This document shows positions 11,248 to 35,946 of a stretch of DNA of 64,000 nt, in pieces. Positions within the stretch are counted from its first letter, which is position 1, and the number at the start of each line of letters is the position of its first letter. Below the pieces are notes generated by a model. It searched no databases and was not told the DNA's origin. It saw only the letters and a list, made by a program, of their open reading frames with translations. Location of the stretch: IMG/VR virus record IMGVR_UViG_3300003937_000247. One strand, given 5' to 3'. The position numbers and the translations under genes were made by a program. Source of the DNA: a virus.

Positions 11248-11276
11248 TTGACTTTTTAGTTTTTTTTTGATATAAT
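11248..11276 (+). promoter_or_regulatory. sigma70-type promoter for gp43
   Basis: ttgact-17bp-tataat; ATG only 5 nt beyond the -10, so possibly a leaderless mRNA. Confidence 0.75.
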
Positions 11277-23736: not shown

Positions 23737-23817
23737 TATAAATAGTCAAGTAAGTAGTGATTTATTAATGGAACTAGTGGATTTTCGCTTGACTAAAAGC
23801 GTCAAATTTGTTATAAT
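23737..23817 (+). promoter_or_regulatory. tandem late (TATAAATA 23737) and sigma70 (ttgact 23789-17-tataat 23812) promoters
   Basis: Both consensus elements present upstream of 23836. Confidence 0.7.
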
Positions 23818-23835: not shown

Positions 23836-25059
23836 ATGTATAGTTTTAAACAATATTTAAATGAGGCAAAGAACACTCATTTAGAACATTTAGAAGACGA
23901 AATAATTAATAACGGTTACGAAGGTGGCCTTAACGCAGTAGAATTTCTTAAATCATTAAGAAATATGCTGACAGGATCATCACGTAAACGTTTAAATGTA
24001 TCTGTTAAATGGGATGGAGCACCAGCAGTATTCTGTGGTATCAATCCTGAAAACGGAAAGTTCTTTGTTGGATCAAAATCTGTATTCAACGTCACTCCTA
24101 AAATCAATTACACACAAGCAGACATAAGAAGAAATCACGGTGGTGGTTTAGCAAAAAAATTAGCAATCTGTTTAAAAGAATTGCCGAAACTTAATATAAG
24201 TGGTGTTGTACAAGGCGACTTGTTATTTACACCTGGTGATATTAAGTCGGTATCTATAAGAGGTGAGGATGCTATTGCATTTACACCTAATACTATAACA
24301 TATGCCGTCCCAGAAAATACTGACCTTGCCAGAAGAATTACAAGAGCTAAATTAGGTATCATTTTTCACACTACTTACACAGGAAGAAAAATGGCAGACT
24401 TAAAAGCAGGCTTTGGCGTCAATGTAAAACGATTAGCAAAGACGCCATCAGTATTTTTTGATGACGCAAGTTATAAAGACTCATCTGGTGTTGCTACATT
24501 TACAACTGCTGAAAGCGCTCAGTATGATGGTATGTTAAGAATGGCAATGGGATCAATATCAAAAGGTAAAAGAATTTTAGATTTATTAAAAAGACAAACC
24601 AATATATTATCAGTTGGTGCAAGATTAAAAATATATTTTAACACAATGATTAGACAAGGTCAATCAGTTAGTAATGTTAAAAGATTACAAGCAGATTTTA
24701 GAAAATATTATGCTTCAGTTTTAGATGATGAAATGTCTAAAAGAAAAACAGATACAGCTAAAAGAAAATACAAAGCAATAAGAGATGATGGTTTAAAATT
24801 TATTGATAGATATGATAATGAAATTTACTTTGCAATTGCAAGTTATGTTACCTTACAAAGAGCTAAAACTTTTCTTGTAAGTAAGATGAATCAAATAAAA
24901 TCTATTGGTACATTTTTACAAAAAGGCAATGGGTTTGTAGTAACAAATCCTGAAGGTTATGTTGCTGTTGATAGAATGGGTAACGCAGTAAAATTAGTAG
25001 ATAGACTAGAGTTTAGTACCGCAAACTTTACTTTAGCAAAAAATTGGGTAAAAGGATAA
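23836..25059 (+). CDS. conserved T4-like protein (DUF6267-like) with ATP-dependent ligase-type motifs
   Basis: KNTHLEHLED; VKWDG (motif I-like), QGDLL (III-like), EGYV (IV-like), VKLV (V-like); N-terminus MYSFKQYLNE. Confidence 0.65.
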   Translation: MYSFKQYLNEAKNTHLEHLEDEIINNGYEGGLNAVEFLKSLRNMLTGSSRKRLNVSVKWDGAPAVFCGINPENGKFFVGSKSVFNVTPKINYTQADIRRNHGGGLAKKLAICLKELPKLNISGVVQGDLLFTPGDIKSVSIRGEDAIAFTPNTITYAVPENTDLARRITRAKLGIIFHTTYTGRKMADLKAGFGVNVKRLAKTPSVFFDDASYKDSSGVATFTTAESAQYDGMLRMAMGSISKGKRILDLLKRQTNILSVGARLKIYFNTMIRQGQSVSNVKRLQADFRKYYASVLDDEMSKRKTDTAKRKYKAIRDDGLKFIDRYDNEIYFAIASYVTLQRAKTFLVSKMNQIKSIGTFLQKGNGFVVTNPEGYVAVDRMGNAVKLVDRLEFSTANFTLAKNWVKG

Positions 25060-25433
25060 TGAATAAACAATACGCTTATTTTCTTTTGAAAAAAAAGAGA
25101 ATGCAAAAGAAAAGAAAACCAAGAAAGAGAAAGAAATGATAACGTCTATAAAAAAATTATATAATTGGAAGATTAATCTAATCAGAAAGTATCCTGTTTG
25201 GTGTGCTTATGGTGCTTGGGTTGAAGGATTCCTAATAGCATTGCTAATAGTATGGATATGGTAAAATGATTACTGTAGAAAAAAGATATAAGGATTCAAA
25301 TGACAAATGGGAATTTGATATGATTTATGTTGATGGTATGGAAGGCGGGAAACAAAGAGAAGAAGACCTTGCTAAACAAATGGAAGATAAAGATAGTGAA
25401 AGTCATTTTGAATATAGAGTAGAACGTAAATGA
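25059..25433 (+). CDS. three short coupled ORFs (basic peptide 25059-25139, membrane peptide 25136-25264, acidic peptide 25266-25433)
   Basis: Manual translation; overlapping or adjacent start/stop codons. Confidence 0.45.
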
Positions 25434-26011
25434 AAGGTTTTAGAGATTTTATATTTGAACAAATAGGTCGTATGAGAATTGTGATGTTAGGTGGACCAGG
25501 TTCAGGTAAATCTACTTATGCAGAATATTTAATTAAACACTTTGATATAACACATATTTACCCAGGTGATATGTTAAGAAAAGAAATGGAAAAAAAGAGT
25601 GAAATAGGAAAAGAAATAAAAGATTTAATGGCAAAAGGTAAGTTTGCTCCTAATGATATTGTTTTAGAATTAATAAAAAAGAAAGTTGATCAATCACCTA
25701 AAGGTTATGTGTTTGATGGATGGCCAAGATATATGGAACAAGTTAATGATATGCTAAAGGCACAAATAGGTTACGACCGTGCAGTATTTTTGAACGTAAG
25801 TAAAGAGGAAGTTATGAAAAGATTGTTAGCAAGAGGTCGTGCTGATGATACAGTTGATATTATTAATGATAGAATTGCTTTATATAAAAAAGAAACAGGT
25901 CCTGTTGTTGAATACTTTAGAAAGCAACCAGGATTTATTGAAATAAAAGCAGAGGGTGGCACACCTAAAGAAACGGCCAACGAAATTATAAACAGAATAG
26001 AAGGAGAATAA
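25430..26011 (+). CDS. adk: adenylate kinase
   Basis: GGPGSGKST, GDMLR, FDGWPR, RGRADD (short LID). Confidence 0.92.
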   Translation: MKGFRDFIFEQIGRMRIVMLGGPGSGKSTYAEYLIKHFDITHIYPGDMLRKEMEKKSEIGKEIKDLMAKGKFAPNDIVLELIKKKVDQSPKGYVFDGWPRYMEQVNDMLKAQIGYDRAVFLNVSKEEVMKRLLARGRADDTVDIINDRIALYKKETGPVVEYFRKQPGFIEIKAEGGTPKETANEIINRIEGE

Positions 26012-26173
26012 AATGGGATTTTTTACAGGCTTATGGAAAGATTGGGGTAAAGGTAAACAAGCTGGACCCAAAACAAACAAAGTAGCAAAACCAAAATTAA
26101 AGAAAGTTAATACTAGAAAGAAAAAAAAATATCCAAAGAGGATAGAAACATCATTATCAGGATAAGGAAAAAA

Positions 26174-26362
26174 ATGATAAAGAAAAACGGCACATTTAAA
26201 ACTATATTACTATGGGTAAATACTTTTGCAATATTATTCATATTGTATAAGTTATATGTCACAGAGCAGGATATAATGTCTTTATGGTTACAATTAGGTG
26301 ATCAATCAGATTTATATCACAAGCTTATGAACTGGCTTAACCCGCCAGGAGAAACCCTATGA
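26174..26362 (+). CDS. small membrane protein
   Basis: One hydrophobic helix. Confidence 0.5.
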   Translation: MIKKNGTFKTILLWVNTFAILFILYKLYVTEQDIMSLWLQLGDQSDLYHKLMNWLNPPGETL

Positions 26363-27045
26363 GATTAAAAAGTTTTATGCAAAATATATCTGAAGGTTTA
26401 TATGACCCAGGTATATTTAAAGCATTCTTCTTAGCAGGAGGTCCTGGGTCTGGCAAATCATTTGTAACTTCAAGTGCATTTTCAGGCACAGGATTAAAAC
26501 TAGTTAATTCAGATAACAAATTTGAAAGAGATTTAAAGAAGGCTGGTATGTCATTAAAAATGCCAGATGATGAAGAATATTTTAGAAATATTATTAGAAC
26601 ACACGCAAAGAAATTTGCTGTTACACAATTAGACCAATACATTAAAGGTAGATTAGGTTTAGTTATTGATAGTACAGGTAGAGATTATGATGGTATTGCT
26701 AGAAACGCTAGTATGCTTAGACAATTAGGTTATGATTGTTATATGGTATTTGTTAACTCAACTTTAGAAGTTGCTTTAGCAAGAAATGCTAGACGTGAAA
26801 GAACTATACCAGAATACATTACAAAATCTAGTTGGCAAACTGTACAAAGTAATATGGGGAGATTTCAAAATTTATTTGGCCAAGGTAATTTTTTAGTAGT
26901 TGATAATAATAGATCAGATTTAGAATTAACAACCGTTATAATGAATAGAGTAAGAAAGGAAGTTAATAAATATATGAGGGCGCCTATCTCTAGTTATATA
27001 GCAAAAAGATGGATGGCAGGTGAGAGAAAGGCCAAGAGAAGATAG
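26359..27045 (+). CDS. P-loop kinase (AAA_33/zeta-toxin/polynucleotide-kinase-like)
   Basis: LAGGPGSGKS, NSD, VIDST, ALARNARRER lid. Confidence 0.8.
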   Translation: MRLKSFMQNISEGLYDPGIFKAFFLAGGPGSGKSFVTSSAFSGTGLKLVNSDNKFERDLKKAGMSLKMPDDEEYFRNIIRTHAKKFAVTQLDQYIKGRLGLVIDSTGRDYDGIARNASMLRQLGYDCYMVFVNSTLEVALARNARRERTIPEYITKSSWQTVQSNMGRFQNLFGQGNFLVVDNNRSDLELTTVIMNRVRKEVNKYMRAPISSYIAKRWMAGERKAKRR

Positions 27046-27047
27046 AG

Positions 27048-29519
27048 ATGAGATTTAAAGAATTTATAAAAGAGTCTATAATAGACATACCTAGAAAGAC
27101 TTATGCTGGAGGAGTATTTGATAAAGCAGATACACCTAAACCTACAATAAAGCCTTCAGTAAAAAAACAAATATTAGACGGAATTAAAACGTTTGAAAAA
27201 TTTGGAAAAGTAGTTAAGTATACCTTAATAGGATCAATACTAACTAAACAATATAGAGATGACGCCGACCTTGATATCAATATACTATTTGACATCCCTG
27301 GTTCACAAGCAGAACAGGAAAAAGTCCACGATAGTATAAGAGAATATCAAGGAGAGATAAATGGTAAAGTAATACCAGGCACAAAACATCCTATCAACTA
27401 CTTTTCTATCATAGATCCTGCAACATTTAGTAAGGCTCGGGACATGGCTGATGGTACTTTTGATATTGACACTAACAAGTGGATCAGAAGACCAGAACCT
27501 GGTAAATTTGAGCCAGAAAAATACGTTGCGGATTTTCAGAAACACGTTTCTGAAATAGATGTTGTTAAAGGTGAATTGGTGAGGGATATGATTGATTATG
27601 AGGAACTAAAGAGTTTGACGAGCTCCGAAATTGATAACTTGTCAAAATTAGTATCCGAAAAGTTAGATGAAATTAAAGATTCTATTAACACGTTAATTGA
27701 TATTGGCGCTAAGACAATTGCAAACCGAAAGGCTGCTTTTGATAAAGATATGTCGCCAGACGAAATCAGAAAGTTCGGTGTGAAGAATCGACTTCCGAAA
27801 AATGTGATTTATAAAATGTTAGAAAAGTATCATTATCTCAAATTTTTCAAAAAGTTGAACGAGATTATGGAAGACGGTAAAATTACACCAGATGAACTGA
27901 AATCACTATCAAAAATAAAGGAAGCGGCTGGGGGTAGATCAATAGCATTTACCTTTGGTCGCTTTAATCCACCTACAATAGGACACGAAAAACTTATTAA
28001 CAAAGTGGCACAACAAAGAACAGATGATTACAAAATTTATTTAAGTAAAACTGAAGACACATCTAAAAATCCACTATCACATAGAATTAAATTAGCAACT
28101 ATGAAACAAATGTTTCCTAGACACGCTAGAAATATGTTAGTCAATTCATCTAATATGATTTTAGATATTGCAACTGATTTATATAAACGAGGTTATTCAG
28201 ACATAACAATGGTTGTTGGTAGTGATAGAGTAAGAGAATTTGATACTATCTTAAAAAAATATAACGGCGTTAAGAGCCGTCATGGTCTATATGACTTTGA
28301 TAGTATAAATGTGGCGTCAGCAGGAGAAAGAGATCCAGACGCTGAAGGTGCCACAGGTATGAGTGCTAGTAAAATGAGAATGGCTGCAAAAGAAAAAGAC
28401 TTAACATTATTTAAAAGAGGTCTGCCATCCAATTTTGCTAGAACTAAAAATGCACAAGACCTTTTTAGAAACGTAAGAAAAGGAATGATGTTAACCTCAA
28501 GTATGGACTACACAACTTTAGGTGCATTTAAATTTAAGCCATTTATAACTGCCTCTACAAAAGAGGAGTTAGAAAAGATGACATTAAGGGACAAATATAT
28601 TTCTGAACATTTATATGATGTAGGAGATATAGTTGATGATATAGAGAGTAATATAACTGGTGTTATCATAAGAAGAGGAACAAACTATGTAACTTTAGAA
28701 GATGTTGATATGAAGTTACACAAAGCTTGGTTGTATAATATAATGGAAACTCCTGTTTATCCTACTAGTTTAGAGGAAAGAGCAAAGAAGTTGAAAGAAG
28801 AAAAAGACCAACCGAAAGATAAAGGATTAAAAGATTCAAACGAACTTGTAGGGTTTAAAGTACAAACTAAAGCAAGTAAAACCAAACGATTTAAAGAAAT
28901 TTATAAAGAATTAAAGACAAAAAAAGGTGAGTCAGAACCTGAAAAAAGAGGTAATGAATTTCAAGCAGATGTAGGTGGACCACTAGCGTCCCTAAATGCA
29001 CCACAAGAGGCATACGAAATAGGCCACGATTGGGCAAAATATACATCTTCAATTACCCCAGGTGAGAAGAATTATAATCCTAAATTTCAAGGTGGTCCTT
29101 ATAAACCAAGTAAACATAGTGATAATTTAATCAACGTTAACGCAGGTAAGGATATAAAACCAATGAATAAGAAAGTTGAACTAAAAGATATAGAGGAATG
29201 GGCAAGTAACGCACAAACAATAGATAAATATAAGGAAAGATATGGGGAAGAGTGGAAATCAAAAATAGAAGAAACATACAATAAAATGTTTAATAAAGTG
29301 ATTGACACCAGCAAAAATATGCAAGAAGGAAGAATGAAAGACATCGCTATTGACCTTAAATCTAAGGAAGAAGGCGGGTTAGATCCAGAAACATTTAAAA
29401 GAAAATATGCTAAATCTAAAGCCGATATGGAGAGAGATTTAGGGGGACAACCTAGTGTCATTAAGAAATCATTTAAAGAATTTTGGGCACAATCGGAGAC
29501 TAAAAATGAGCAAGTATAA
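27048..29519 (+). CDS. multidomain protein: Pol-beta-type nucleotidyltransferase fused to HIGH-class cytidylyl/adenylyltransferase
   Basis: IGS...DADLDI (NTase); FTFGRFNPPTIGHEKL, VGSDR, MSASKMR (cytidyltransferase). Confidence 0.8.
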   Translation: MRFKEFIKESIIDIPRKTYAGGVFDKADTPKPTIKPSVKKQILDGIKTFEKFGKVVKYTLIGSILTKQYRDDADLDINILFDIPGSQAEQEKVHDSIREYQGEINGKVIPGTKHPINYFSIIDPATFSKARDMADGTFDIDTNKWIRRPEPGKFEPEKYVADFQKHVSEIDVVKGELVRDMIDYEELKSLTSSEIDNLSKLVSEKLDEIKDSINTLIDIGAKTIANRKAAFDKDMSPDEIRKFGVKNRLPKNVIYKMLEKYHYLKFFKKLNEIMEDGKITPDELKSLSKIKEAAGGRSIAFTFGRFNPPTIGHEKLINKVAQQRTDDYKIYLSKTEDTSKNPLSHRIKLATMKQMFPRHARNMLVNSSNMILDIATDLYKRGYSDITMVVGSDRVREFDTILKKYNGVKSRHGLYDFDSINVASAGERDPDAEGATGMSASKMRMAAKEKDLTLFKRGLPSNFARTKNAQDLFRNVRKGMMLTSSMDYTTLGAFKFKPFITASTKEELEKMTLRDKYISEHLYDVGDIVDDIESNITGVIIRRGTNYVTLEDVDMKLHKAWLYNIMETPVYPTSLEERAKKLKEEKDQPKDKGLKDSNELVGFKVQTKASKTKRFKEIYKELKTKKGESEPEKRGNEFQADVGGPLASLNAPQEAYEIGHDWAKYTSSITPGEKNYNPKFQGGPYKPSKHSDNLINVNAGKDIKPMNKKVELKDIEEWASNAQTIDKYKERYGEEWKSKIEETYNKMFNKVIDTSKNMQEGRMKDIAIDLKSKEEGGLDPETFKRKYAKSKADMERDLGGQPSVIKKSFKEFWAQSETKNEQV

Positions 29520-30909
29520 AACAACTTGGACAGAAATAAGAAATCATCTACACGAAATACAATTAGCATATGTTGTAAGATATTTGGACCCTAAAAATGG
29601 TAAGAGATTTGCTATACCATATAAAACTGAACCAGACGCAAAGAAAAAACGTGACCAATTAAAAGGTGATGGTGCTAGACAGTTATCAATTACAAAAGAT
29701 TATTTAAAAGGTAAGTTTAAAGAAGAAGTAGATTTACAAGAGCTTATTAGAACAGGCGGTGGTGCTGTTCGTTATGATAATAAAAAAGTTGGTTGGTTTG
29801 ATAAGTCAGGTAAGAGAGTTTATCTTGGCAAGGCTGATACACAGAAATTAATGTCAAAAGATTTAGAAAGAAAAAAACAAACAGGTGATTGGATTACTCC
29901 ATATGATTTGTCAAAAGAAGATGTATCTAAAGATAGTGCATACGCAATCGGTATGGCAAAAGCTAAAGATATGAAAAATGATGAACCGCCTGTAGAAAAA
30001 AGTACAATTACAAAAGCACACGATATTGCTAAAGCAATATTAAGAAAAGAAGAAGTTATTAGTGAAGAACTATTAATAGAATGGGACAAACAAGAACTAC
30101 AAGAATTTTCTAGGTCTCAATTAGACGCTTTGGCAAGACAATATTCAGACCTTAAAGGCAAAACTATATCTATTGATAATGCAAACAAATTAAGAAAAAT
30201 TTTTGATAAGATACCTAATCATTTTTTAAATGATTTAAGAAAAAAACATATACCTTTCTTATCAGGTTTAGCTTTATCACGTATGGTACAAAAAGGCATA
30301 CCTGTTAGAGAAGATACTGATTATTTAAAAAGTAAATTAACTACCTTCCAAATAAACAATATTAAAAATACATGGAAGATGAAAAAGGCTTCGGATGTAA
30401 CTCCTGCTGTTAAAGATATGATTAAGAAAATGGATATACCAACTCAAATAGCAATTAAACAAGCAAATATTCCACACTTATCAAAACTAGTAGAAGAAAT
30501 TGAAGAAGCTAGTAATACAACTTACAAAGTAAAAAAAGATGGTAAGGTAGTATTCACAGGTAAGTATAATGATGTTTTATTATACCGTAAAAAACATGGT
30601 GGAGAAATAGTTACCGAAGACGCTTCTGATATGGCACAAGCAAAAGCGACAGGTACACAAAAGAAAATTGCAGACCTGACAACACGTATTAAAGATACGG
30701 AAGTTAGGGGAAGAGATATACCCCTAGTTGATAAACCTAAAATTGCAATTAATAAAGCTGATGTCAATCATATGAAATTGAAACTTGCAGATTTAAAAAA
30801 CAAGTTGAGATCAGATAGACAGCAGAGAGCAATGGCGGCTCAGAACGAACCTGAAACAGATAGTTCAGGTAAACCCAATAAGAAAAAGGAAATTACAGAA
30901 AATGAATAA
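29506..30909 (+). CDS. large basic hypothetical protein, probable internal head protein
   Basis: Likely start at ATG 29506; modules separated by (L/I/V/F)xE motifs resembling prohead protease sites. Confidence 0.55.
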   Translation: MSKYKTTWTEIRNHLHEIQLAYVVRYLDPKNGKRFAIPYKTEPDAKKKRDQLKGDGARQLSITKDYLKGKFKEEVDLQELIRTGGGAVRYDNKKVGWFDKSGKRVYLGKADTQKLMSKDLERKKQTGDWITPYDLSKEDVSKDSAYAIGMAKAKDMKNDEPPVEKSTITKAHDIAKAILRKEEVISEELLIEWDKQELQEFSRSQLDALARQYSDLKGKTISIDNANKLRKIFDKIPNHFLNDLRKKHIPFLSGLALSRMVQKGIPVREDTDYLKSKLTTFQINNIKNTWKMKKASDVTPAVKDMIKKMDIPTQIAIKQANIPHLSKLVEEIEEASNTTYKVKKDGKVVFTGKYNDVLLYRKKHGGEIVTEDASDMAQAKATGTQKKIADLTTRIKDTEVRGRDIPLVDKPKIAINKADVNHMKLKLADLKNKLRSDRQQRAMAAQNEPETDSSGKPNKKKEITENE

Positions 30910-31615
30910 GAAATACTTTGAAACAAAGTCTGGCAGCTTAGAAGAAGTTTCTACAAAAATTGCTACCGAGCAGCCGACAATAAAAAAACAAGAACCAAAA
31001 GTTAAATTAACAGTAGATAAAACTTACTTTGATGTCAAACCAGGATCACTTGCAGACGCAGCTGCTAAAGTCGTAAGTGAAGGTAAAGAAATTAAAGAAG
31101 ACTGTGAATGCAAATGTGGTAAATCTCCATGCAAGGCGTGTGGTAAAGATCATCATCCAGTTAAAGAAGAAACTATTGTAGAATTTACAACACAACAAAT
31201 CAAACAAGCGTATGGCATATTGAATGATCCTAGATACAAACAAGGTAATTATTCAGGTGCTGTTAAGGCAATTGAAAAACTTGCAAAAGGTTTATCAGAC
31301 CATCCAGATGTTGCAAACGCATTAAAGAGAGCTAATGAATCAGTTGTAAAAGAAAATCCATTAATGGCTTTAGGAAGAACTGCAGCCGCAGCTGCTGGTG
31401 CAGCCGCAGGCGAAACAGCAGTAAATAAAGCTGCTGAGTTAATGAGCAATGTTGCTTCTGATAAAAAAATTGTTGGTAAGAAAGATAAAAAGTCTTTTTC
31501 AGATATACGTAAAGAACAGAAGTTAGTTAAGACAGGTGACAAAGTAAAGGGAAAGACTGCAACAGGAAAAAAAGCTGCAGTTATTGATGTAGAACCGTCA
31601 TCTCGTCCAATCTAG
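30902..31615 (+). CDS. hypothetical protein, probable internal head protein
   Basis: Repeated VKE/IKE/VSE sites, KYFxxKxGSL repeat, short Cys/His cluster. Confidence 0.55.
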   Translation: MNKKYFETKSGSLEEVSTKIATEQPTIKKQEPKVKLTVDKTYFDVKPGSLADAAAKVVSEGKEIKEDCECKCGKSPCKACGKDHHPVKEETIVEFTTQQIKQAYGILNDPRYKQGNYSGAVKAIEKLAKGLSDHPDVANALKRANESVVKENPLMALGRTAAAAAGAAAGETAVNKAAELMSNVASDKKIVGKKDKKSFSDIRKEQKLVKTGDKVKGKTATGKKAAVIDVEPSSRPI

Positions 31616-31631
31616 GAAGTAGTAGTCTAAT

Positions 31632-32120
31632 ATGAAGCCTATTATTTACTGTGACATGGACGGAGTATTAGCAGATTTCAAAACAGCCGCACAAAGAACT
31701 ACAGGTATGTCCATTAATAAATGGATGAACATACCATCTTCAAAAGAAAAGTGGGCACCTATTAAAGCTAATAAGAATTTTTGGTCTACTCTTCCTTGGA
31801 TGGCTGGGGGAAGACAACTATGGACTTACATATCAAAGTTTGACCCACATATATTATCAGCATACGTAGAAGGATCATTTGATCCAAATTGTATACCTGG
31901 CAAAACTCAATGGGCAAGAAGTCGTTTAGGTATTGGTAGTTCAAAAATCAATTTAGTAACAAGAAAAGAAAAGAAACTCTTTGCTAAAAGAGGCCAACCT
32001 GCAATCTTAATTGATGATTATGAGAAGAATGTTAGAGAATTTACACGATCAGGCGGCGTTGGTATTCACCACACTAGTACATCAAAGACTATTTCTCAAC
32101 TGAAAAAGTTGGGTTACTAA
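31632..32120 (+). CDS. HAD-family 5'(3')-nucleotidase/phosphatase
   Basis: CDMDGVLADF, ILS, K, LIDD. Confidence 0.88.
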   Translation: MKPIIYCDMDGVLADFKTAAQRTTGMSINKWMNIPSSKEKWAPIKANKNFWSTLPWMAGGRQLWTYISKFDPHILSAYVEGSFDPNCIPGKTQWARSRLGIGSSKINLVTRKEKKLFAKRGQPAILIDDYEKNVREFTRSGGVGIHHTSTSKTISQLKKLGY

Positions 32121-32130
32121 TCTCATTCCT

Positions 32131-32138
32131 TATAAATA
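32131..32138 (+). promoter_or_regulatory. T4 late promoter
   Basis: TATAAATA upstream of aaggag RBS. Confidence 0.75.
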
Positions 32139-32188
32139 GTACTAGTTATATAACAGAATAAATTAATTAATTTAAAAGGAGAAAAGAT

Positions 32189-32803
32189 ATGAGTGGATGG
32201 GCAAAAGGAGCGGATACCGCTACAAATAAACCAAAACATTTATCTACTAACGAGAACTCCCAGTATAAAAAGCAAGATGTTTACGCAACCAATTCAGGTT
32301 GGGTACAAAGAGCTGGTACGAAAGCGTCTGGTAACGATAATGCCAACGCACAACCAGAAGTCTTGGTCGCTATACGAGGGCTTGCAGGTACATCAGCAAC
32401 GACTGGACTACAGGAAGCAACTATTACAAATGTAAGATTTGTAGCAGGCACTACTGCAGCTACAGACTTAACTGCTGGTTCATCTAGTCAAACAGTTCAA
32501 ATAGAGGTAACTTGGGATGAAGCAGTTACAGTTACTGGAGCACCAGTAATGAAAGTTGTAAATGGTGGCGGTGGAACACACGATTGTGTTTATACTGCAA
32601 CTGGTTCAACAGCTAACAGAAAGAGATTTACAGTAGCGAGTCAAACACTTGCAACTGGCAATGTTCTTTCATTAGGAACTGCTCTCCATGACGCAGTAAC
32701 ATTACCAGGTGGAGCAACAATCAAAGATACTGCTTCAGGTACTATTAATTCGCAAAGAACTATTGCTGCTGGTATAAGAGTTACACATACAGTAGCTGCG
32801 TAG
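32189..32803 (+). CDS. probable virion structural protein
   Basis: Thr/Ala/Gly-rich beta protein (WDEAVTVTGAP) behind a late promoter. Confidence 0.65.
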   Translation: MSGWAKGADTATNKPKHLSTNENSQYKKQDVYATNSGWVQRAGTKASGNDNANAQPEVLVAIRGLAGTSATTGLQEATITNVRFVAGTTAATDLTAGSSSQTVQIEVTWDEAVTVTGAPVMKVVNGGGGTHDCVYTATGSTANRKRFTVASQTLATGNVLSLGTALHDAVTLPGGATIKDTASGTINSQRTIAAGIRVTHTVAA

Positions 32804-32826
32804 TAGAACATAATTATTAACAATTT

Positions 32827-32854
32827 AGGGGCGGTCAATCCGCCCTTATAAATA
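32827..32854 (+). terminator. hairpin overlapping late promoter TATAAATA (32847)
   Basis: aggggcgg-tcaat-ccgccctt followed by tataaata. Confidence 0.65.
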
Positions 32855-32919
32855 TATTAACAAAGTGATCTAGGCAATTACCTAGAGTAGCATTCCCGAA
32901 AGGGTTTAAAGGAGAATAA

Positions 32920-33378
32920 ATGGCAGACAAAAAGATAACGGCATTGACCGATTTGGGAGACTCGTTGGCAGCAGCTGACTTGCTCCATGTAGTTGACGAT
33001 CCGTCAGGTACACCAATCAATAAAAAAATATCAGCAGAAAATGTGTTTAACAATATACCATCGTGGTTAGGTTTAGCACAGACTTCACAGTCAATTACTG
33101 CTGACGCTTCATCACAAGTTGCTAACATAACAAGCGCTGTAACTGAAATCAACGCTACAAGTGCAACAGGTGCTATCTCATTAGCAGATGGTTCAGATGG
33201 ACAAATTAAAACTTGTATAAACACTTCAACATCAGGTACAAACAACGTAGTAATTACACCAACTAATTTAAGAGGTGGTTCTACAGTTACTTTGAACGCT
33301 GAAGGTGAAAATGTGACTTTGTTATTTAAAAATTCAAATTGGAATGTAATCGCAGGACACGGTTACGTTGTTGCATAA
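32920..33378 (+). CDS. probable virion structural protein
   Basis: MADKKITALTDL N-terminus, LADG.DGQIK; late promoter. Confidence 0.65.
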   Translation: MADKKITALTDLGDSLAAADLLHVVDDPSGTPINKKISAENVFNNIPSWLGLAQTSQSITADASSQVANITSAVTEINATSATGAISLADGSDGQIKTCINTSTSGTNNVVITPTNLRGGSTVTLNAEGENVTLLFKNSNWNVIAGHGYVVA

Positions 33379-33395
33379 TTTTATAGGAGAATATT

Positions 33396-33737
33396 ATGGG
33401 TATAACTACACAAACGTTAATGAAAGAAAGATTTACATTACAAAAAACGCTGAGCGATATGAACGGCAAAATACAAGTGATTGAAAAGGAAGTGACGCAG
33501 ATGAAAAATAATATGAATGCTGTACACGGAGCTTTACAACAATGTGAGAAACTAATTAAACTTGACGCTGAACATGGAAGAGATGATGGAACACAAGCAC
33601 CGATAAAAGAAATTGAAAACGGTCCACCAGCTCCTTTTGATGACGCTCTTAATGTATTGAATAAAGGGTCATCTTTAGATATTAAACCTAAAGAGGAGGC
33701 TCATCTTTTAAATGAAAAGAAAGAGCAAGAAAAATGA
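33396..33737 (+). CDS. coiled-coil hypothetical protein
   Basis: ORF with aggag RBS. Confidence 0.6.
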   Translation: MGITTQTLMKERFTLQKTLSDMNGKIQVIEKEVTQMKNNMNAVHGALQQCEKLIKLDAEHGRDDGTQAPIKEIENGPPAPFDDALNVLNKGSSLDIKPKEEAHLLNEKKEQEK

Positions 33738-33906
33738 AAGAAGATATCAACAATTTTTTAGAAGAACTGGCTAACAACACACCACACGTAGATCAGTTTA
33801 AAGATGTTGATAAGTTGAAGGAAAGTAATATGAAAGAGGTTGAAGAAGACCTTGTGGGTGGTAAAACTTTTAAGAAATTAAAGGACGAAGTAAACAGAGG
33901 AGAAAA

Positions 33907-34332
33907 ATGAAAACATTTAAACAACATATAAAAGAAGATGGTAAGATGGTTGGCACAGCCACATCTAACGCAGTTGAAGATGGTTCTATTGGTGTTCATA
34001 ACATCCATGAACCTGCAATTTTGAATAAAGTAAATGCTTTTGTTGGCTCTATTGCTAATGGAGAATACATCAAACCTGAGGCTGCTCTTAATCAATTAAG
34101 TGCAAAATTAAGTACAATTGGTGTGACAGTAAAAGATAAAATTGAAATTAAAGATAAAAAGGGTAACTTTGAAAGTGCATTAGTTTATGCTGGAGGCCGT
34201 TTCGGAAAAGATACTGACGGTTCTGATTTAAATGATGATGGTATATCTCATAAAGGTAATAGTATAAAACTAAAAGGTAATTACGAAACATTAAAGAACG
34301 GCGCTGTTAAAGTTTATGCAGAGCTTGGCTAA
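33907..34332 (+). CDS. hypothetical protein with capsid-targeting-like N-terminus
   Basis: MKTFKQHIKE. Confidence 0.65.
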   Translation: MKTFKQHIKEDGKMVGTATSNAVEDGSIGVHNIHEPAILNKVNAFVGSIANGEYIKPEAALNQLSAKLSTIGVTVKDKIEIKDKKGNFESALVYAGGRFGKDTDGSDLNDDGISHKGNSIKLKGNYETLKNGAVKVYAELG

Positions 34333-34694
34333 TGTTTGATAGGATAACAAAGAAAAATTGGTTATTTTACGCTATAAAAAACTACAATGTTCCTAATTTA
34401 GATAGTGAACAGGAGTTTTATGAGGATGTAAAAAGATTTAAATATCTTAAACGTCTATTTCGTAAATATAAAACCACAGGCGAACTGAAAACTAGATTAG
34501 TATTAAATCATATTATAGTATTAACAAATGTATTTGGTAATGAGGCAGCGGCTACATTATTATTATTTAAAGTTGAAAGAGAGTATTGGTCGGTATTAAA
34601 AACTTTCTTACAATATTTAAATGTAATTACAATAGATGAGTTGCCAAACATAAAAGTACATAAAACTTTGTTGTCAAGTTTGGAGAAATTATAA
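34332..34694 (+). CDS. conserved marine T4-like hypothetical protein
   Basis: EFYEDVKRFKYLKRLF...LNHIIVL.NVFG. Confidence 0.75.
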   Translation: MFDRITKKNWLFYAIKNYNVPNLDSEQEFYEDVKRFKYLKRLFRKYKTTGELKTRLVLNHIIVLTNVFGNEAAATLLLFKVEREYWSVLKTFLQYLNVITIDELPNIKVHKTLLSSLEKL

Positions 34695-35284
34695 TGGGAC
34701 GAGCCATAGATTTATTAATAACATATAGAGTAATCAAAATGTTGGTTACACCTTGGACGAGCCATGACGCATATAAGTATGGGATTATTGATGATAATGG
34801 AAAAATATTACGAAGAATGAGAGACCTGAAGATAGCTAAAGAGAAAGATTCTTATACTATACTTCATAGATTTGTTTTTAATTTGAAAAGATTACTAGGG
34901 TTATTACCTGGAGGTAAATCAAAGTTTGCTTCATATGCAGCTGCTTTGGCTTTATTATTAAAAGAAAACAAAGATGTAAATGCTATTGAAATAGAAAAAG
35001 CATTGTACAAACATCTTGTTGAGAATAATTTAATAGCATATGATGATGATGTAAAAGAGTCTGTTGGATTTGATTTCTTACCAGAAGGTAAATATATAAT
35101 GACAGATAGATTGGAAGATTTAGAAGGTGATACAACTGGTGATGTAGGTGATGTTGTTTATACAACTGAAAACCAAAAACCTTTTGAGAATTATTTTGGA
35201 GTTAATCTTTACCATGTTATAAACGAAGATACAAGAAAACAGATTATAGTATCCGAGGATAATATAGAGAGGATAAAATTGTAA
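34694..35284 (+). CDS. conserved marine T4-like hypothetical protein
   Basis: YR.IKMLVTPW...AYKYGIID..G...HRFVFNLKR. Confidence 0.75.
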   Translation: MGRAIDLLITYRVIKMLVTPWTSHDAYKYGIIDDNGKILRRMRDLKIAKEKDSYTILHRFVFNLKRLLGLLPGGKSKFASYAAALALLLKENKDVNAIEIEKALYKHLVENNLIAYDDDVKESVGFDFLPEGKYIMTDRLEDLEGDTTGDVGDVVYTTENQKPFENYFGVNLYHVINEDTRKQIIVSEDNIERIKL

Positions 35285-35692
35285 ATGAAATCGTTTAAAG
35301 AATTTAGAATTTCAGAAGACGCTCCTACAAATGCAGTAGGCGATGGATCAAATGTTGCAATGCCACCATCACACGAGCCTGGTGTTCACGTAAAGAAGAA
35401 AAAGAAAGAGAATCCTTTAACAAGATTAATCAGTAGATTTAAAGTAAAGGAAGACTATAATAAGATAGAGGTTGAAAACTTAATTAACAAGATTGAAAGT
35501 AGCCAAGAGGTACAATTAACTCAAATTGAACCTATCAAAAACAATATAAAATCTAAAAAACAACAAGGTACATATACTGAACAATTTGGTATGGCTGCAT
35601 TTAGATATGTGGTAGATAGTCAAATCACATCAACTGTATCTGAAAAATTTAGAAATCAGGTTGCTTCTCAATTACTTTCAAAACACGTATGA
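35285..35692 (+). CDS. hypothetical protein with capsid-targeting-like N-terminus
   Basis: MKSFKEFRISE-DAPTNAVG. Confidence 0.65.
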   Translation: MKSFKEFRISEDAPTNAVGDGSNVAMPPSHEPGVHVKKKKKENPLTRLISRFKVKEDYNKIEVENLINKIESSQEVQLTQIEPIKNNIKSKKQQGTYTEQFGMAAFRYVVDSQITSTVSEKFRNQVASQLLSKHV

Positions 35693-35946
35693 AAACATTT
35701 AAAGAAATAAGAGGAGAGAGTTATATGAGAGGGTTTGGAATAGGTCCTTTAGATACATTAAAACCTATGAACTCTATGGGTTCATCTGGTCAATTTTTTC
35801 CAAACAGAAGATACGCAACTACAATGCCTGCTTTAACAGCAACGGCAAAGGGACCTGGGTTGGGAACAATTAAACCGTCAGCAAGTATGTTGACTGCAAA
35901 CAAAAAGAAAAACAAAAAGGGAGATAAAGATGTCAGAAGAAATTAG
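35689..35946 (+). CDS. hypothetical protein with capsid-targeting-like N-terminus
   Basis: MKTFKEIRGE. Confidence 0.6.
   Translation: MKTFKEIRGESYMRGFGIGPLDTLKPMNSMGSSGQFFPNRRYATTMPALTATAKGPGLGTIKPSASMLTANKKKNKKGDKDVRRN

Follow-up and report, generated by a model that had tools for sequence, protein, structure and literature searches.

Several enzymes and small proteins encoded in the IMG/VR virus record IMGVR_UViG_3300003937_000247 begin with a common peptide that resembles the capsid targeting sequence of phage T4. We refer to this peptide as the tag and to the whole analyzed stretch of 64,000 nucleotides as the window, which derives from a T4-like pelagimyophage whose closest isolate is Pelagibacter phage HTVC008M (Kyanoviridae). 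Several indirect lines of evidence converge here, namely sequence comparison, analogy with T4, and the virion proteomes of relatives. From these, we consider it likely that the tag combines a T4-type capsid targeting sequence with a prohead-protease site and that tagged proteins are packaged, cleaved, and injected. Late in infection, the tag would dock these proteins on the scaffolding core of the prohead, where a gp21-family protease would cleave after the tag Glu. The mature proteins would then remain in the head with the DNA and enter the next cell at injection, ahead of phage gene expression. The proposed cargo comprises a DUF6267 protein that appears to be a ligase-fold nucleotidyltransferase, an adenylate kinase, a two-domain nucleotidyltransferase (Pol-beta plus NMNAT-like HxGH), and three small proteins; a second P-loop kinase is probably cargo as well. 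We infer packaging, cleavage, and injection in the window phage, as well as any role of the enzymes on arrival.

Upon scanning the window in six frames with the regular expression M-x-x-F-K-[EQ]-[FYIH]-[ILR]-x-E, we found that it opens six open reading frames (ORFs), named here by their first nucleotide, from 23836 to 35689, and is absent elsewhere. All six matches sit at the first start codon of a plus-strand ORF, within 12 kb. A looser, position-based expression matched 6 of the 126 ORF starts against ∼0.44 expected from an internal background of 0.0035 per site, and the six-frame scan and this background rate together rule out a chance origin of the motif. Three of the tagged ORFs encode enzymes: the DUF6267 protein (23836–25059, 407 residues, tag at residues 1–10), the adenylate kinase (25430–26011, tag at residues 1–10 and canonical kinase start at residue 15), and the nucleotidyltransferase (27048–29519, 823 residues, tag at residues 1–9). 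The remaining three encode small proteins found through the tag expression, namely 33907–34332 (141 residues, no family, a candidate internal head protein), 35285–35692 (135 residues, no family), and 35689–35946 (85 residues, with a mature form of isoelectric point ∼10.9). An earlier note on this DNA had described a shared motif at seven ORF starts, recurring at 33907, 35285, and 35689. The starts and quoted N-termini proved exact and these three ORFs all match the expression, but the seventh start, that of the P-loop kinase 26359 (26359–27045, plus strand), is only a loose match.

In the tag, position 4 is aromatic, position 7 is aromatic or bulky, position 8 is aliphatic, and position 10 is Glu. 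Six proteins have the aromatic residue at position 4 (or 3, with one residue missing), and position 7 is occupied by F, Y, H, or I. The tag ends with Leu/Ile-x-Glu in five tagged proteins (L-N-E, I-F-E, I-K-E, I-K-E, and I-S-E), whereas that of 35689 ends R-G-E and holds no gp21-type site. The kinase 26359 carries a 12-residue prefix that also ends I-S-E; with F at 6 and I-S-E at 10–12, it matches neither expression. Its orthologues in HTVC008M and Melnitz have short F4...x-E prefixes before the same conserved G-[LV]-Y-D-P domain start.

Capsid targeting sequences of T4 IPI, IPII, IPIII, and Alt were reportedly described by Mullaney and Black in 1996, and capsid targeting of these proteins is covered by the reviews PMC9026906 and PMC3012670. 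The ten N-terminal residues of IPIII are enough for packaging, and a mutational summary assigns targeting to residues 4 and 7 and processing to residues 8 and 10 (PMC9026906). Five of the seven window proteins satisfy these positions, either in register or shifted by one residue. The likeness to T4 proposed in the earlier note also held when we compared the window with T4's own sequence (NC_000866), where ipII and ipIII start MKTYQEFIAE and ipI starts MKTFKEF. As far as sequence can tell, the resemblance of the N-terminal peptide to a T4 capsid targeting sequence is real. The peptides of both systems are N-terminal, 9–12 residues long, and nearly the same in sequence, with aromatics at 4 and 7 and an aliphatic-x-Glu end; in both, the tag is portable over unrelated cargo and the phage family has a gp21-type protease. 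The systems differ in that the window phage is a marine member of the Kyanoviridae while T4 belongs to the Tevenvirinae, and in that the cargo here is a run of nucleotide- or nucleic acid-handling enzymes, including a host-type adenylate kinase with a tag added. Tag-like junctions also occur here inside multidomain proteins, and the system is known here from sequence.

The end of the tag resembles a further T4 element. Residues 62–65 of T4 gp23, where gp21 cuts, read F-L-T-E, and the aligned stretches of the capsid proteins read F-L-G-E in HTVC008M and L-L-T-E in S-CREM2. The tag shares this ending with the capsid-protein sites, and its second half therefore resembles the maturation site of the lineage itself. 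A gp21-family prohead protease (PF03420, E 3e-34) is encoded in HTVC008M, adjoining the scaffold and capsid genes. In T4 itself, we noticed that gene 61.1, a hypothetical gene of 54 codons on the minus strand (L004, NC_000866, 19130), opens with a perfect tag, MKTFKEFIKE. To our knowledge, its product has no listing among the T4 head proteins.

Structural models and domain boundaries place the tag outside the folded domains, and the models show it as disordered. AlphaFold modeled the DUF6267 protein with a predicted local distance difference test (pLDDT) score of 93 and a predicted template modeling (pTM) score of 0.89, and only residues 1–10 fall below a pLDDT of 50; residues 1–15 do so in the model of the N-terminal domain of 27048. 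For the adenylate kinase, NCBIfam models align from residues 15–17, and the canonical M-R-I-V is kept behind a 14-residue extension that is present in all 120 of the 120 closest homologues (75–100% identical to the window kinase overall). Among the listed DUF6267 representatives whose domain starts in the first 60 residues, 42 of 116 are tagged and 15 of 116 start directly at K-N-T-H-L-E-H. Homologues of 27048 retain the tag while their C-terminal partners differ (PAP2, DUF5824, and others). The tag copies have different codons and different upstream DNA and are therefore not a DNA repeat. This makes it very improbable that the similar N-termini are a functionless trace of recombination or shared ancestry, left by a common 5′ segment shuffled between neighboring genes, even though the tagged genes are clustered and T4 internal-protein loci vary behind a constant 5′ end (PMC3012670). 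Such a trace would also have to account for a tag that is kept on unrelated enzymes across distant Kyanoviridae and is perfectly conserved in adenylate kinase homologues with bodies only 75–80% identical to that of the window.

DUF6267 is tagged in the window and in Melnitz, where the phrog_1462 protein, the cytidyltransferase, and the P-loop kinase carry tags too, and is untagged in S-CRM01. The HTVC008M deoxyribonucleotidase (L001 15284–15874), an orthologue of an untagged HAD protein of the window, has a 22-residue N-terminal extension starting M-K-Y-S-A-F-K-A-E. From this extension and the similar pattern in DUF6267, the tag seems to have been gained and lost between orthologues. Separately, we observed that in six fusions with other domains ahead of DUF6267 (P0186, P0236, P0239, P0248, P0262, and P0270) the junction before the conserved domain ends in hydrophobic-x-Glu, and that one fusion junction holds F-K-E-L-L-T-E. 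These junctions suggest either polyprotein-like cleavage or a short segment native to the family.

Published proteomes of related phages allow the tag to be compared with virion content. Cytidyltransferases and kinases are often detected in virions of cyanophages, among them cytidylyltransferase/NMNAT-like proteins and kinases of S-CREM2, S-CRM01, S-CBWM1, S-SZBM1, and S-SCSM1 (PMC10665884). In S-CREM2, 52 of the 219 ORFs were detected in virions purified on cesium chloride (PMC10665884). We scanned the whole S-CREM2 genome with a regular expression built from the T4 critical positions alone, which matched four gene starts, those of the SAM hydrolase ORF6, the kinase ORF14, ORF136, and the cytidylyltransferase ORF154, plus one site inside nrdA. 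All four of these gene products are in the virion list (hypergeometric P ∼0.003), and among the first 70 S-CREM2 ORFs examined the association between tag and virion detection gave a Fisher P of 0.014. With looser matching, ORF13 was virion-detected and two other products were not. For S-CRM01, a kinase is reported as a virion protein, as relayed in the part of PMC10665884 that concerns it. This kinase starts with the tag, and so do two neighboring proteins, one of which is the cytidyltransferase. We also noted that the virion-detected "Cas9-like" protein S-CREM2 ORF12 (L008 7704–10313) and the protein S-CRM01 g128 (L007 10394–10945) carry a tag-like F-x-S-F-[MI]-x-E ∼17–25 residues into the protein, which recalls the longer, 19-residue IPI propeptide.

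In these cyanomyophages, an orthologous or syntenic cytidyltransferase and a large kinase adjoin the DUF6267 gene, as in the window. Unlike our analysis, the papers that describe their virion enzymes offer no targeting mechanism and leave contamination open, and they do not report adenylate kinase and DUF6267 as virion proteins. In the literature that we searched, cyanophages and pelagiphages are not the subject of any paper using the term "capsid targeting sequence," and no paper links tag-directed packaging to virion cytidyltransferases or kinases or extends it to adenylate kinase or DUF6267. Tag-directed packaging in T4 and the virion-associated cytidyltransferases and kinases are thus known already; the present analysis links the two and proposes adenylate kinase and DUF6267 as further candidates.

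Two kinds of promoter precede the enzyme block. The earlier note had placed the block behind a late promoter, and a T4-type late-promoter box, TATAAATA, does lie at 23737–23744 on the plus strand, directly behind the stop codon that ends the gene before it. This box is under-represented in the window (8 copies versus 15.8 expected); all copies are on the plus strand, 7 of the 8 are intergenic, and those at 32131 and 32847 lie upstream of the small tagged ORF 33907. However, the block is probably not purely late: the note had overlooked a near-consensus sigma-70 promoter, TTGACT-N17-TATAAT with a TG element, at 23789–23817 on the same strand. It agrees with the consensus at 11 of 12 positions and is the best such site between 22 and 37 kb. 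TTGAC-N17-19-TATAAT occurs at five sites in the window (7363, 11248, 15687, 23789, and 58929), all on the plus strand, versus 0.43 expected, and the site at 11248 is directly upstream of the DNA polymerase gene. These five sites are probably phage early promoters. With both a TATAAATA box and a sigma-70 promoter in front of it, the block is probably transcribed in both the early and the late phase; transcription in the late phase fits packaging, and that in the early phase fits enzymes that are wanted throughout infection. Under the packaging model, early transcription from the sigma-70 promoter would prolong the same activities that the injected enzymes bring.

The strongest reason to see the tagged enzymes as ordinary early auxiliary metabolic enzymes that act only in the infected cell is also this sigma-70 promoter, which is of the same class as the one upstream of the DNA polymerase gene. 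Their shared N-terminus would then serve translation initiation, protein binding, or degradation, and the virion detections in relatives would be carry-over. Pelagimyophages have already been described to carry the adenylate kinase gene adk as an auxiliary gene (PMC7029224), the authors of the S-CREM2 study caution that soluble proteins, when abundant, may be purified along with virions (PMC10665884), and the codons of the motif are A/T-rich. We nevertheless regard this explanation as unlikely, since it is the peptide and not the codons that is conserved, from pelagimyophages with 32% guanine plus cytosine (GC) to S-CREM2 with ∼50% GC. The tag is moreover confined to a small subset of genes, fits the T4 targeting and processing positions, and ends like the capsid-protein maturation site, and the strict S-CREM2 matches were all found in virions while most S-CREM2 proteins were not.

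The early promoter and the co-purification caveat are nonetheless among several points that weigh against packaging and injection. From the sigma-70 promoter directly before the block, early synthesis is to be expected, and packaging does not require it. Of the seven proteins, two agree poorly with the cleavage rule (26359 and 35689). The regular expression for S-CREM2 was picked after inspection of the data, and the virion evidence as a whole comes from the published proteomes of the relatives S-CREM2 and S-CRM01 rather than from the window phage or HTVC008M. The window stops short of the head module, and protease and capsid genes are not in it. Lastly, given the internal hydrophobic-x-Glu junctions of the DUF6267 fusions, part of the motif could be a feature of that family and not a portable signal.

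A further explanation accepts the targeting and doubts the cargo. T4 gp22, gp67, and gp68 act in the prohead core or are degraded there, and the tag might likewise lead proteins to the core as assembly factors instead of as an injected kit. The T4 protease and core do handle and process pure assembly proteins as well (PMC5694885), and the three small tagged ORFs sit among late and structural-type genes. We find this improbable, given that catalytic signatures are intact in the adenylate kinase, in both nucleotidyltransferase domains, and in DUF6267, and that peptides of mature enzymes were detected in finished S-CREM2 virions. A precedent for injected cargo also exists in T4, whose internal proteins and Alt, itself an enzyme, are carried in this way. 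The three small tagged proteins are candidates for counterparts of the T4 internal proteins, judged by their tags.

The product of 23836 belongs to DUF6267 (Pfam E 2e-125), a family of 2,740 clusters at 50% identity for which we found no named function and no paper in the literature searched. The earlier note had called it a ligase-like KxDG protein, and structural comparison supports this. Among the best 13 of 48,161 PDB representative chains, 12 were RNA or DNA ligases with RNA ligases at the top (5cot Z 8.3, 6n0t Z 7.8, 1s68 and 2hvq Z 7.3, and 9do4 Z 6.7; overall Z 5.8–8.3 over 166–197 aligned residues), values near the stated noise ceiling of the aligner, in a range where a shared arrangement alone is possible. 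Viral RNA ligases also recur among the weak BFVD matches beyond the DUF6267 family. In an alignment of 102 sequences (36–50% identity), four residues are invariant (K58, D60, G374, and K386) and two more are conserved in >90% (G61 and E373), with the K-x-D-G, the E-G, and a later Lys succeeding one another as do ligase motifs I, IV, and V. The model shows a helical domain of ∼130 residues inserted before motif IV.

The comparison with Rnl1 and Rnl2 that the note had suggested gave a divided answer, since RNA ligases are the top matches of the structural aligner and recur in BFVD but the remaining methods detected none. Foldseek of the model against the PDB gave no significant match; phmmer and the 102-sequence DUF6267 profile against the PDB found no ligase and only low-complexity helical matches; hhalign of DUF6267 against T4 Rnl2 gave a probability of 0.1%; a Pfam scan of 23836 returned DUF6267 alone and no ligase family; and the ESM Atlas yielded only unnamed viral clusters. 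Because the sequence methods find no ligase and the Z values are modest, we call DUF6267 ligase-fold and not a member of a ligase family. Relative to the ATP-dependent RNA ligases (T4 Rnl1/Rnl2, NgrRnl (Rnl5), the Trl1 ligase domain, and archaeal Rnl3), which are its top structural matches and share its motif order, DUF6267 has the helical insert, lacks the OB domain or Rnl-type C-terminal domain, and shows no sequence-level relationship. The model thus supports a ligase-fold nucleotidyltransferase as the product of 23836, and DUF6267 here gets a first, model-based assignment at the fold level as ligase-like. The DUF6267 gene and the HxGH domain lie side by side in cyanophages, and many proteins contain both as a fusion; from this, the two probably work together. 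In Pfam scans of 20 DUF6267 fusion proteins, the only named partners were CTP_transf_like and DUF5824.

The other enzymes of the block proved to be of the kinds that the earlier note had read from their sequences. The product of 25430 matches Pfam ADK with E 2e-37 (129 bits versus a cut-off of 26.8) over profile positions 1–149 of 151 and contains the P-loop G-x-P-G-S-G-K-S; by these sequence features, it is a complete short-type adenylate kinase. Pfam and PHROG identify the product of 26359 as an AAA_33-type P-loop kinase, nearest to Zeta toxin and PSTK. In the product of 27048, the tag is followed by a Pol-beta fold (residues ∼20–150), a helical linker, an HxGH cytidylyltransferase-like domain (∼298–480), and a tail, in keeping with the Pol-beta plus cytidyltransferase call. 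The Pol-beta domain has invariant G62, S63, D74, and D76, the GS...DxD signature. Its top Foldseek matches are all MNT, CD-NTase, ANT, Cid1, or CCA enzymes, the last being those against which the note had proposed a structural check, with probabilities ≤0.98 and E values of only 6e-3; its Pfam matches are below their cut-offs. The HxGH domain matches CTP_transf_like (PF01467) with 21.3 bits versus a cut-off of 21 and phrog_395, "cytidyltransferase," with E 6e-66, and it conserves P-P-T-I-G-H and a later S-x-S-K-M-R. By these sequence features, the C-terminal enzyme domain has an NMNAT/PPAT/cytidylyltransferase-like HxGH fold, and PDB sequence searches with it were uninformative on the substrate.

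Relatives of 27048 differ in architecture. Many of ∼1,130 residues (P0282, P0288, P0290, and similar) have the Pol-beta-type domain well inside the protein, with ∼200 extra residues before it in P0290, and carry a PAP2 phosphatase domain (PF01569), sometimes with PF22778. From these positions and partners, the N-terminal module combines with different partner domains. We also found an internal copy of the tag in the 27048 protein, K-K-S-F-K-E-F-W-A-Q-S-E, encoded at 29463–29498 and lying 6 residues from the C-terminus; longer relatives have the same K-S-F-K-E-F followed by a DUF5824 domain. This copy may be left over from a fused gene, or it may serve as an internal protease site. We found no evidence that 27048 and the next ORF form one frameshifted gene, as longer relatives align only to ∼29483–29585 and then diverge into other C-terminal domains.

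As the note had said, the block closes with a HAD phosphatase that lacks the motif. The protein encoded at 31632–32120 on the plus strand is a HAD-superfamily 5′(3′)-deoxyribonucleotidase-like, NT5C-like protein (phrog_2643 E 6e-28; Pfam NT5C E 7e-5). Like T4 Pnk and Rnl1, an AAA_33-type P-loop kinase, a HAD phosphatase, and a ligase-fold enzyme are thus encoded close together. Unlike in T4, the kinase and phosphatase are separate genes and not bifunctional, the kinase is nearest to Zeta toxin/PSTK and the phosphatase to deoxyribonucleotidases, and there is no anticodon-nuclease context. Neither a bifunctional kinase-phosphatase nor, by phmmer and profile searches against the PDB, a sequence relationship to Rnl1 was found, and T4 Pnk and Rnl1 are not packaged. 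The function as an RNA/nucleotide repair kit that had been proposed for the block is an analogy only.

The window has a GC content of ∼32%, and its long ORFs are all on the plus strand. Its gene order is that of HTVC008M: DNA polymerase, UvsX, gp41 helicase, phrog_1462 protein, DUF6267, kinase, cytidyltransferase, deoxyribonucleotidase, and late-type genes. Between the nucleotidyltransferase and the deoxyribonucleotidase lie two more plus-strand ORFs. One, at 29506–30909, encodes a 467-residue protein with no Pfam or PHROG match, the N-terminus of which is possibly a tag variant (Y4, W8, and E10). Together with its orthologues in HTVC008M (L001 13585) and Melnitz (L013 7851), it shares the start M-[ST]-[RK]-Y-x-K-T-[MW]-x-E, in which residue 4 is aromatic and residue 10 is Glu; this start may be a second type of tag. 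The other, at 30902–31615, encodes an untagged 237-residue protein with no family by Pfam or PHROG. Four small ORFs of 42–62 residues lie between the enzyme genes (25136–25433 and 26013–26362), two with hydrophobic, membrane-like stretches and one extremely basic. At the tagged genes 25430 and 26359, the start overlaps the stop of a small ORF, an arrangement suggestive of translational coupling.

Large fractions of SAR11 and picocyanobacteria fall victim to marine T4-like phages every day. Several proteomic studies found enzymes in marine T4-like virions, with the choice between cargo and contamination undecided, and a T4-type tag on exactly those proteins supplies a mechanism and a testable sequence rule. 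It also widens the set of candidate injected proteins to adenylate kinase, two nucleotidyltransferase folds, and DUF6267. Our best guess is that, on arrival, the enzymes handle nucleotides and cofactors and also seal or adenylylate the ends of nucleic acids at time zero. Going further, we propose only tentatively, as a possibility that may well prove wrong, that virions of pelagimyophages and cyanomyophages, the most abundant myophages in the ocean, inject a tag-marked, ready-made enzyme set, including DUF6267 as a ligase-fold family not recognized before, paired or fused with an NMNAT-like enzyme, that acts before phage gene expression, for instance by restoring nucleotide/NAD pools or mending cut nucleic acids in starved or defending hosts. 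The adenylate kinase illustrates how a host-type enzyme would become virion cargo by the addition of ∼ten codons. If packaging by the tag holds true, the injected proteome of any Kyanoviridae genome would be predictable from its sequence.

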